Of a stretch of DNA of 64,000 bases, positions 24,293 through 26,074 are shown piece by piece. Every line of letters starts with the position of its first letter. The first letter of the stretch is position 1. The translations under genes were made by a program, and so were the position numbers. The DNA comes from Saccostrea cucullata. Lineage: Eukaryota. The notes below the pieces were generated by a model that saw only the letters and a program-made list of their open reading frames with translations, searched no databases and was not told the DNA's origin. The stretch is taken from positions 186,001 through 250,000 of the forward strand of contig NW_026932690.1 in the NCBI RefSeq assembly GCF_032062105.1. Direction: 5' to 3'.

Positions 24293-25415
24293 TGCCCTTT
24301 TCCAAGGGGAGATAATTATGAATTAAAGAAAAAATAATGGCTTTTTTAAAAAAATCTTCTCAAGAACCACTGGGTCAGGAAAGATGAAACTCGTGTGGAA
24401 TCATTCTCAGGTAGTGTAGATTCAAGTTTGTTCAAATCATGACCCCCGGGGATAGGGTGGGGCCAAAATGGCCGATCAAAGTTTACAAAGGAATATATAG
24501 GAAAATTCTTTAAAAATCTTCTTCTCAAGAACCACTGGGCCAGGAAAGATGAAACTCAAGTGGAATCATCCTCAGGCGGTGTAAATTCAAGTTTCTTCAA
24601 ATCATGACCCCCGGGGGTAGGGTGGGACCAAAATGGCCGATCATAGTTTTACATAAGAATATATAGGAAACATCTTTAAAAATCTTCTTCTCAAGAACCA
24701 TTGAGAGAGGAAAGATGAAACTTTCATGTGAAATCATCCTCACGTAGTGTAGATTCAAATTTGTTCAAATCATGACCCCCAGGGCTAGGGTGGGGTGTAA
24801 GTTTTACATAGGAAAAGATGGGGAAACCTTTTAAAATTTTCTTTTCAATACTTCAAAGCCATGATTCGTGATATTTATATGGAATCATCCTCAGGTAGTG
24901 TAGATTCTAGTTTGTTCAATTCATGATCCCCTGGGGGGGTTAAAATTCAAGCTCCCACCACCTCAGTAACCTTTCAGTTCTGATCTGATCTGTGCTTTTT
25001 CCTAACTGATGTGCTCAGGTGAGCGCTGTGGCCCCCTGGGCCTCTTGTTTCACTTAAACTCTTAATCCCTTCAATATTATTCTGCAATAAATAATTTTCT
25101 AAATCATTGATATACAAGTTAAAAAGAAATTTCCTAGCCGATGTGCTCAGGTGAGCGCTGTGGGCCCTGGGCCTCTTGTTTTTAATTGCATCAAGGTTTC
25201 ATCCATTTTCAGATTTGTTCTTACACAAGACAATTCGTGTCACAAAATACCAAAACTATTCTGTTCAAATCAAACCTTGTTGTGAAAGGTTGCCTCCTGC
25301 AGATTTTACAAAGGTTGTCCCGGGCACCACCTCCAGAGGTAAACCCCATCGCCCTACAGTTATAACCACCACCAAATCAACAGATAACCACACTTCTACC
25401 ATGACTGACAATTAA
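16195..25415 (+). CDS. Receptor copy A: truncated, probably secreted glycoprotein, 244 aa; exons 16195-16270, 16604-16751, 17762-17832, 17964-18047, 21480-21632, 25213-25415
   Basis: Signal-like MKRTYIFTFVLFIVFLNLYRFRVLKA; all six exons are phase compatible, stop-free and conserved with copy B. The exon-6 donor is ATAACC instead of GTAACC, so it reads through to TAA at 25413-25415; no TM exon downstream. Confidence 0.72.
18460..19117. repeat. 25-bp minisatellite (ttacagtgatcatcattgctttatt)n, about 26 copies
   Basis: Tandem units with period 25 (tgatc at 18781, 18806...); single copy at the paralogous site 35870-35898. Confidence 0.95.
24124..25182 (+). mobile_element. HINE with ~180-bp units and two successive 3' termini
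   Basis: Same family as 3564-4995; gatgtgctcaggtgagcgctgtggc..gggcctcttgttt at ~25009-25050 and again at ~25140-25182. Confidence 0.85.
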
Positions 25416-26074
25416 AAATAGTAATTCAGACAATCATTTACCCCTTTCTACACTGTTAAAATATGTTTAGAGAAAACAAAAACATGTTTAATATTATGCT
25501 TTAACAATTAAACACTTAAGTCTAAATATGTGTTATATTGATGCGCTTAAATATAACACGTGTTTAGATGAAGTGTTGTAAAATTGAACTCTTTTCTTTG
25601 AAGTACAGTTATATTACCGGAAAGTAGGTATATATTTGAACGTTAATTAGAGCGGTAATCGAAACAAAGAAAATACCAATGTAAGCGTAAGAAGATGTAG
25701 CGGTGGAGGAGAATGGTAACCAGTGCTGAGGAGGATGTGAAATGTATTTGACTGGCATCTTATTACTACGATAAAAGGTCTGTTTATTATTTTTAGTTTA
25801 CATTTGACCAAGATGAGCAACGTAAGTAAATATGCAGTGTCACATGTAAATGTACATTATGATTTCCGTTGGTTCTTTTGCAATCACCAAAGCTAACGAG
25901 GATTATATATATAATTTCATTTAAAAAGCATCCATATCGGTATAAGTACTTTATAAAAGTTAAATGAGTTTCACTAAATGTGACGCAATAATAGCCAGTA
26001 AGTAAACTTAAAATTTTTAGTGAGGAGCCTACTTTCACTGTAATTTTATTTTCTATCTTACAGGAGTACAGTGA

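Follow-up and report, generated by a model that had tools for sequence, protein, structure and literature searches.

A tandem paralogue of an oyster single-pass membrane protein gene, cut short at a DNA-transposon end, with a predicted secreted ectodomain as its product

How did one of two tandem copies of an oyster membrane protein gene come to lack its membrane anchor, and what might the truncated copy do? These questions are raised by a 64,000-nucleotide stretch of Saccostrea cucullata DNA (contig NW_026932690.1, positions 186,001 to 250,000; hereafter, the window). The initial annotation held that a GT-to-AT change in a splice donor, next to a duplication breakpoint, had turned copy A into a secreted ectodomain that was selected as a soluble decoy or opsonin. 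Our analysis describes copy A as a relaxed secreted ectodomain paralogue of a known kind, in which a transposon end and the loss of an acceptor came first and the donor change came last. The fuller reading, that copy A is an old tandem paralogue without a transmembrane (TM) segment, whose predicted secreted ectodomain is likely a decoy for the ligand of copy B, seems to us about evenly balanced between right and wrong; we infer the decoy role from the anatomy of the gene alone.

Exon models made from the sequence gave the following structures for the two copies.

16195-25415, forward strand: copy A gene, 8 exons, 290 amino acids, no membrane segment
16195-16270, forward strand: copy A exon 1, encoding a hydrophobic N-terminus and shorter than in B by two in-frame deletions of 15 nt
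16604-16751, forward strand: copy A exon 2, 8% mismatch to B
17762-17832, forward strand: copy A exon 3, in which a Glu invariant in 8/8 full-length relatives is Lys, giving a KR pair
17964-18047, forward strand: copy A exon 4, where the six-cysteine core domain begins
19106-19159, forward strand: copy A exon 5 (exon model)
21480-21632, forward strand: copy A exon 6, joined to exon 7 in RNA
22277-22360, forward strand: copy A exon 7, lacking 6 nt of the B exon with the frame preserved
25213-25415, forward strand: copy A terminal exon 8, in which the core ends (Cys pair at amino acids 246-247), with a Thr-rich stalk, a 10-residue read-through tail and the stop
33460-47479, forward strand: copy B gene, 10 exons, 583 amino acids, complete with ectodomain, single-pass TM and tail
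46514-46625, forward strand: copy B TM exon, TM at about amino acids 295-325
46717-47479, forward strand: copy B tail exon with tyrosine motifs (exon model)

The copy B model was identical to RefSeq XP_062573919.1 (isoform X1 of LOC134235790, Saccostrea cucullata). In copy A, all 14 splice dinucleotides were GT/AG with phases matching those of B, the reading frame was open, and the three deletions relative to B (15, 15 and 6 nt) were in frame. Intact frame and splice sites had been claimed for six exons of copy A; both hold, but the exons number eight. The claimed layout of copy B, with a GT donor, a short intron and a TM exon, was likewise found, the intron being 81 nt long, and copy A was seen to read on past its lost donor for 10 codons to a stop at 25413-25415. 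Copy A retained 6/6 core cysteines and 48/51 family-invariant residues. The hydropathy peak of its 290-residue frame lay at the N-terminus only, with no transmembrane segment; from its sequence this N-terminus is likely a signal peptide, which would then be cleaved. A promoter-side block was 92% identical between A and B, against an average of 79%. When the whole genome was searched with the DNA of B exons 8-10 and with the whole protein, only copies A and B were recovered, with a single TM and tail between them and no further TM or tail exon. An alternative first exon that lacks a hydrophobic stretch, taken from RefSeq models, has counterparts in both copies (16400-16480 and 33700-33775).

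The homology of A to B ended at 25439-25449, and a transposon began immediately beyond.

25451-26065, forward strand: ~615 bp from the left side of a DNA transposon of ~1.35 kb, including the terminal inverted repeat and preceded by TA

The start of this fragment aligned with the last bases of the B intron-8 acceptor, which is the position of the TM-exon acceptor in A. The annotation was thus correct that homology stops at the would-be TM acceptor (~25450), but the breakpoint that it saw there corresponds to the left terminal inverted repeat of a DNA transposon present in many copies. The DNA 3' of the A stop had matches of 69-74% at 40 further genomic locations, these 40 being the scored part of 119 candidates. 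At nine of the loci, members of this ~1.35-kb family were 88-98% alike, and inverted ends of ~14 bp were found at family loci, of which the window holds the left one only. Matching 2-bp flanks were present at 5/9 loci (L008, L009, L010, L013 and L014, with L008 and L009 near-duplicates). From its ends and flanks, we regard the window element as a putative member of the CMC/EnSpm (CACTA) type. Target-site duplications of 2 bp have been described for animal CACTA elements in the available portion of PMC4298943.

On the assumption that the transposon family lineage evolves at the neutral rate, the age of the fragment could be compared with that of the duplication. The fragment differed from four family members by p 0.21-0.23, close to the non-coding p of 0.206 between A and B (15 blocks), so most of the history of A was likely spent without a TM segment, and the transposon end would be about as old as the A/B duplication. 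The right half of the transposon was absent from the window and from 40 kb upstream, the start of the first duplication unit was not found in the same interval, and neither the first unit nor the 40 kb upstream held a parent element. Insertion followed by a 3' deletion, and a rearrangement made by transposition itself, fit the origin of this end equally well. In maize, tandem direct duplications made by alternative transposition of Ac ends have a transposon end at their joint (available portion of PMC3744419), like that of A; unlike the maize case, only one transposon end survives at A, and insertion then deletion fits equally.

To follow the transcripts of this locus, RNA from 4 of 24 listed runs (X1, X8, X21 and X22, from three studies) was aligned to 19120-27100; these reads came from related oysters, 90-99% alike, other than the assembled animal. 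The exons were covered and the introns near-empty. Joints between exons 6 and 7 were present in 43 reads of X21 and 11 of X22, with near-zero depth in the intron between, and an exon-7 end was joined to exon 8 in X1 contigs. The exon 6-7 joints (21623-22281) took two forms, 9 nt apart and in frame, in 3/4 runs, supported by 26 and 17 reads of X21 and by 5 and 6 of X22; the forms may be alleles or paralogues. The transposon junction was crossed by an X1 contig (25371-25538, 4 differences) and by an X8 contig (25362-25865, 13 differences and 20 gap letters). Thus, the possibility that copy A is silent, which the annotation had raised, is answered for related oysters, in which the A-type locus is transcribed and spliced. 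The reads of these oysters carried mixed A and B states, and some of them may be B-type.

Depth in X21 was 91 at 25384, only 36 at 25394 and 6-13 at 25494-25545, and in X22 it fell from 44 at 25384 to 1-7 by 25494-25545. It is possible that the drop from 91 to 36 within ten bases reflects B-type reads that retain the intron. Five molecules started at 25439 on the minus strand, 23 nt past a candidate signal.

25411-25416, forward strand: ATTAAA, likely poly(A) signal, overlapping the A stop codon, with a counterpart at 46468 in B intron 8

Together with the fall in depth, these starts suggest a 3' end of the A transcript near 25439, and some RNA contigs carried on beyond this point into the transposon. 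The first part of B intron 8 (46433-46475) is open for 18 codons and carries the same ATTAAA, and a soluble B isoform may arise there.

The donor motif of exon 8 occurred at only two places in the window, in A at 25384, where it reads AT, and in B at 46433, where it reads GT.

25384-25385, forward strand: former exon-8 donor of A, AT in the assembly, with G in every related-oyster RNA read and contig aligned there

A base G at 25384 was carried by 91/91 reads of X21, by 44/44 reads of X22 and by all contigs of X1 and X8. Since every related-oyster read and contig aligned here has G, the AT is probably a late, private change. Moreover, because the junction appears with an intact GT in RNA of other animals, an A-type locus exists there and is read through, so the AT is not supported as the cause of the read-through. 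The alternative that GT-to-AT was required and selected for the secretion of A draws on the presence of AT in the assembly and on its removal of a donor that could join a downstream acceptor. Against it stand the G in 135/135 raw reads and all contigs of the four runs, the A-type contigs that have G and still run into the transposon, and an isoform of a short Crassostrea virginica copy (P0052) that reads through at the equivalent position; we consider it very improbable, and the claim that the donor change made A a secreted protein is largely contradicted by the RNA. For the truncation, it is enough that the acceptor and TM exon were lost at the transposon end. The donor mutation is likely a late passenger, a consequence rather than a cause, presumably arising because nothing preserves a donor once its acceptor has gone.

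The sequence of events that we favour can be outlined as follows. An old tandem duplication of an oyster single-pass membrane protein gene produced copies A and B, and at about the same time a DNA-transposon end would have come to lie on the TM-exon acceptor of A. With the TM and tail exons lost, exon 8 would be read through to a stop, and transcripts would end at the ATTAAA that intron 8 already contained. The predicted secreted ectodomain, its signal peptide cleaved, could then buffer the ligand of B as a decoy. The GT-to-AT change would have come last, in a donor already deprived of its acceptor.

The comparison of nonsynonymous and synonymous change between A and B, proposed in the annotation as a check, spoke against neutrality over the long term. 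Over 255 codons, dN was 0.103 and dS 0.323, giving an omega of 0.32 (bootstrap 0.21-0.46), with 0.20 in the core domain and 0.56 in the flanking parts. A tree grouped A and B against S. echinata (support 99), with protein branches of 0.175 for A and 0.089 for B. When synonymous change was split equally, branch omega was about 0.29-0.56 for A and 0.15-0.37 for B, and polarised changes numbered 26 in A and 14 in B (chi2 3.6). The exons of copy A have therefore evolved about twice as fast as those of B. In neutral simulations, frame and splice sites were kept in 0/5000 runs at a branch length of 0.12 or 0.16, in 62/5000 at 0.05 and in 848/5000 at 0.02; the survivors at 0.02 leave room for a recent loss of constraint. 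From these sequence comparisons, long-term purifying constraint on the A exons is well supported, though weaker than that on B; constraint in the present is not supported. Of the annotated selection on a soluble decoy or opsonin, past constraint on the exons is thus borne out (omega 0.32), and the opsonin part is not, no lectin or other domain being assignable to the protein.

Recent change in copy A was read from the differences between RNA and assembly. Among those listed, at least 12 were exonic, and the reads had the B letter at nine. With the donor and one read-through site excluded, seven changes fell in shared coding sequence, six non-synonymous and one synonymous. This ratio is as expected under neutrality and the recent A changes look neutral, although seven changes are too few to tell an omega of 0.3 from 1. 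A 1-nt loss at 25285 was seen in 34/92 and 27/66 reads and leads to a stop after amino acid 273, past the last cysteines; this segregating loss also fits a dispensable tail, as it lies after the core.

What kind of protein this is was approached by family and domain searches. The family was restricted to oysters, with relatives named from five oyster species, and had no known domain. With a profile run against 1.84 billion representatives, 9 sequences were recovered, of which two distant ones shared just the TM and tail or the tail. Pfam searches assigned no domain to the family; Pfam Lectin_C matched 0/8 family members at E up to 1 and none of the exon pieces. The best match among sequences of solved structures had an E of 0.012 and was located in the tail. 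Two ESM Atlas leads, both below 0.9, were a C-type lectin (0.83, for B) and a FAMeT domain (0.88, for the C. virginica orthologue). An AlphaFold model of the C. virginica short protein, built on 16 sequences, had a mean pLDDT of 52; with it, Foldseek returned nothing within an E of 0.001, and the best Z from VIA-align was 3.8. The lack of a domain match is no demonstration of a new fold. An opsonin reading of copy A was considered and found to be unsupported.

The tail contains conserved YxxL/I/V motifs, two of which in B are ITIM-like. Among Magallana-type sequences with tails 97-99% identical, the core ectodomains were 82-89% identical to P0015. A variable ectodomain over a stable tail suggests, as far as sequence comparison allows, a recognition protein. 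In Ostrea edulis (P0008-P0014, P0042), a short segment ending in the conserved motif ERSA is repeated up to about eight times, the number varying among isoforms. A separate short protein of the A type was found in 0/110 candidates of one search, in which short forms can hide inside longer clusters, and a further short-form search returned nothing beyond the short form of C. virginica and a 155-residue piece from M. gigas; these negatives carry little weight. The main text of the literature searched made no mention of six LOC identifiers of the family, which supplements could list, and topic searches of the literature gave nothing on this gene.

Copy A may instead be a long constrained and still transcribed gene that is now in decay, with the AT, the frameshift allele and a minisatellite as early steps towards a pseudogene.

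18441-19116, forward strand: 25-bp minisatellite, 27 copies, built from the A exon-5 acceptor, with one copy in B

This array multiplies the exon-5 acceptor, leaving 19 acceptor-like sites upstream, each of which would bring a premature stop if used. Decay would also account for the 6:1 ratio of recent window-specific changes, for a frameshift allele in about 40% of reads and for the 17% of neutral simulations that survive at a branch length of 0.02. A decayed neighbouring gene (26109-27141) is transcribed as well and spliced at similar depth, so RNA alone is no sign of function. Yet the AT and the 1-nt loss both fall beyond the last core cysteine, the listed differences include no frameshift or stop in exons 5-7, and seven changes cannot separate the two values of omega. 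We therefore hold decay to be unlikely on balance, while giving it appreciable weight.

It could also be proposed that the A exons persist because they serve B as an alternative front end, joined by splicing to downstream B exons to make membrane proteins with variant ectodomains. RefSeq LOC134235790 merges A and B, with 10 of the 12 isoforms seen not being pure B, and several of its isoforms join A exons 2-7 to B exons; the greater variation of Magallana-type ectodomains than of tails would suit such an arrangement. However, the switch point varies by isoform and lies within exon 7 in three, and these shifting points, together with the mixed A and B reads, lead us to read the joins as alignment products. 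Moreover, A has an exon 8 of its own that is joined to exon 7 and has stayed in frame, and a transcript from A to B would have to span about 20 kb and other promoters. None of the 12 isoforms seen includes exon 1 of copy A, and the A-derived RefSeq models begin at another exon that lacks a hydrophobic stretch. This front-end proposal is improbable, and LOC134235790 probably merges two genes. Finally, A and B might be two haplotypes left uncollapsed by the assembler, an objection foreseen in the annotation and made plausible by the frequency of haplotigs in oyster assemblies (available portion of 10.1101/2022.08.29.505626). A non-coding divergence of 21% with a dS of 0.32, the transposon junction in independent RNA contigs from two other studies, and the presence of both copies on one contig without N, with flanking genes decayed differently, make this scarcely credible.

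The reading of copy A as a soluble paralogue has several known parallels. Secreted CEACAM1 paralogues and pregnancy-specific glycoproteins are, like A, duplicates of a receptor with tyrosine motifs that lack the membrane anchor, and in a horse CEACAM1 paralogue the TM-exon acceptor was disrupted by a repeat insertion, comparable with the transposon end at the acceptor of A. Those genes belong to a mammalian immunoglobulin family, with cDNA and expression shown (all from the available portion of PMC5856374), whereas A has an orphan oyster domain, has physically lost its TM and tail exons at a DNA-transposon end, and is known from genes and RNA. IL18R1-Short, a decoy receptor, is likewise a receptor truncated by a transposable element, into a signalling-dead form; it is an isoform of one gene and uses a LINE2 poly(A) signal (available text of PMC13232192), unlike A, a separate paralogue in which a DNA transposon removed the acceptor and the signal is host-derived and common to B. 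The Drosophila secreted decoy of the insulin receptor, Sdr, resembles A as a stand-alone gene for a receptor-like ectodomain; its function has been tested by mutants (available text of PMC10140486), and it has no sequence relation to the oyster family.

A closer parallel is C. virginica LOC111135842 (RefSeq), a TM-less near-copy of the orthologue that carries the same Glu-to-Lys change before RSA as A. It is about 96% identical to its full-length partner, with 11 substitutions, and is thus much younger than A. It may be a haplotig of the C. virginica assembly, in which many haplotigs have been reported (available portion of 10.1101/2022.08.29.505626). Invariant residues were changed at 3/51 sites in A and 2/51 in the C. 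virginica short copy, with one (Glu to Lys) in common; the chance of a shared invariant site is about 0.1, and the coincidence was noticed after the fact. More speculatively, oysters may twice independently have made a TM-less copy of this fast-evolving receptor, both with Glu to Lys creating a dibasic convertase site before the core, and the freed soluble domain might tune a receptor that is polymorphic, recognises self/non-self or pathogens and carries tyrosine motifs of the inhibitory type; for this proposal from sequence we see little probability. If A is functional, it represents a dated, base-resolved conversion of a duplicated receptor into a soluble gene by a transposon end, in a mollusc. 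As soluble receptor paralogues are well known, the principle is not new. The family itself, restricted to oysters and unstudied, has an ectodomain that varies much more than its tail, which makes these receptors candidates for recognition functions in a farmed animal.

The duplication also took in neighbouring genes, and their decay, reported in the annotation, was confirmed. An upstream gene (1856-5765 vs 26109-27141) and a minus-strand membrane-protein gene (11240-13415 vs 29973-32388) both have second copies with stops and frameshifts.

26109-27141, forward strand: decayed partial copy of the upstream gene 1856-5765, transcribed

The upstream gene is presumably FBXO9-like; Pfam returned nothing for it (1929-5282). 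Its 3' exons are intact at 1929-5282 and decayed at 26109-27141. RNA of related oysters shows expression and splicing of the decayed copy. Read depth increases within the transposon fragment (25580-26820), and the fragment may be the source of the copy's promoter. The transposon has an acceptor-like site of its own at the joint at 26065. On the minus strand, 10084-11385 holds a second single-pass membrane-protein gene, which faces away from copy A and has a broken duplicate at 29973-30265; its tail contains the juxtamembrane tyrosine motif of the B family (36 columns, E 1.5e-5).

Several repeats were also present in the window. A 29-bp minisatellite of 71 copies occupies 7236-9288, arrays of a 127-146-bp repeat lie at 77-1105, and a satellite of ~166 bp forms three arrays (3787-4771, 13810-15226 and 24355-24794) that are heavily covered by RNA reads. 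Further downstream, the minus strand at 55551-57569 contains an open frame of 672 amino acids with many zinc-finger repeats of the C2H2 type.
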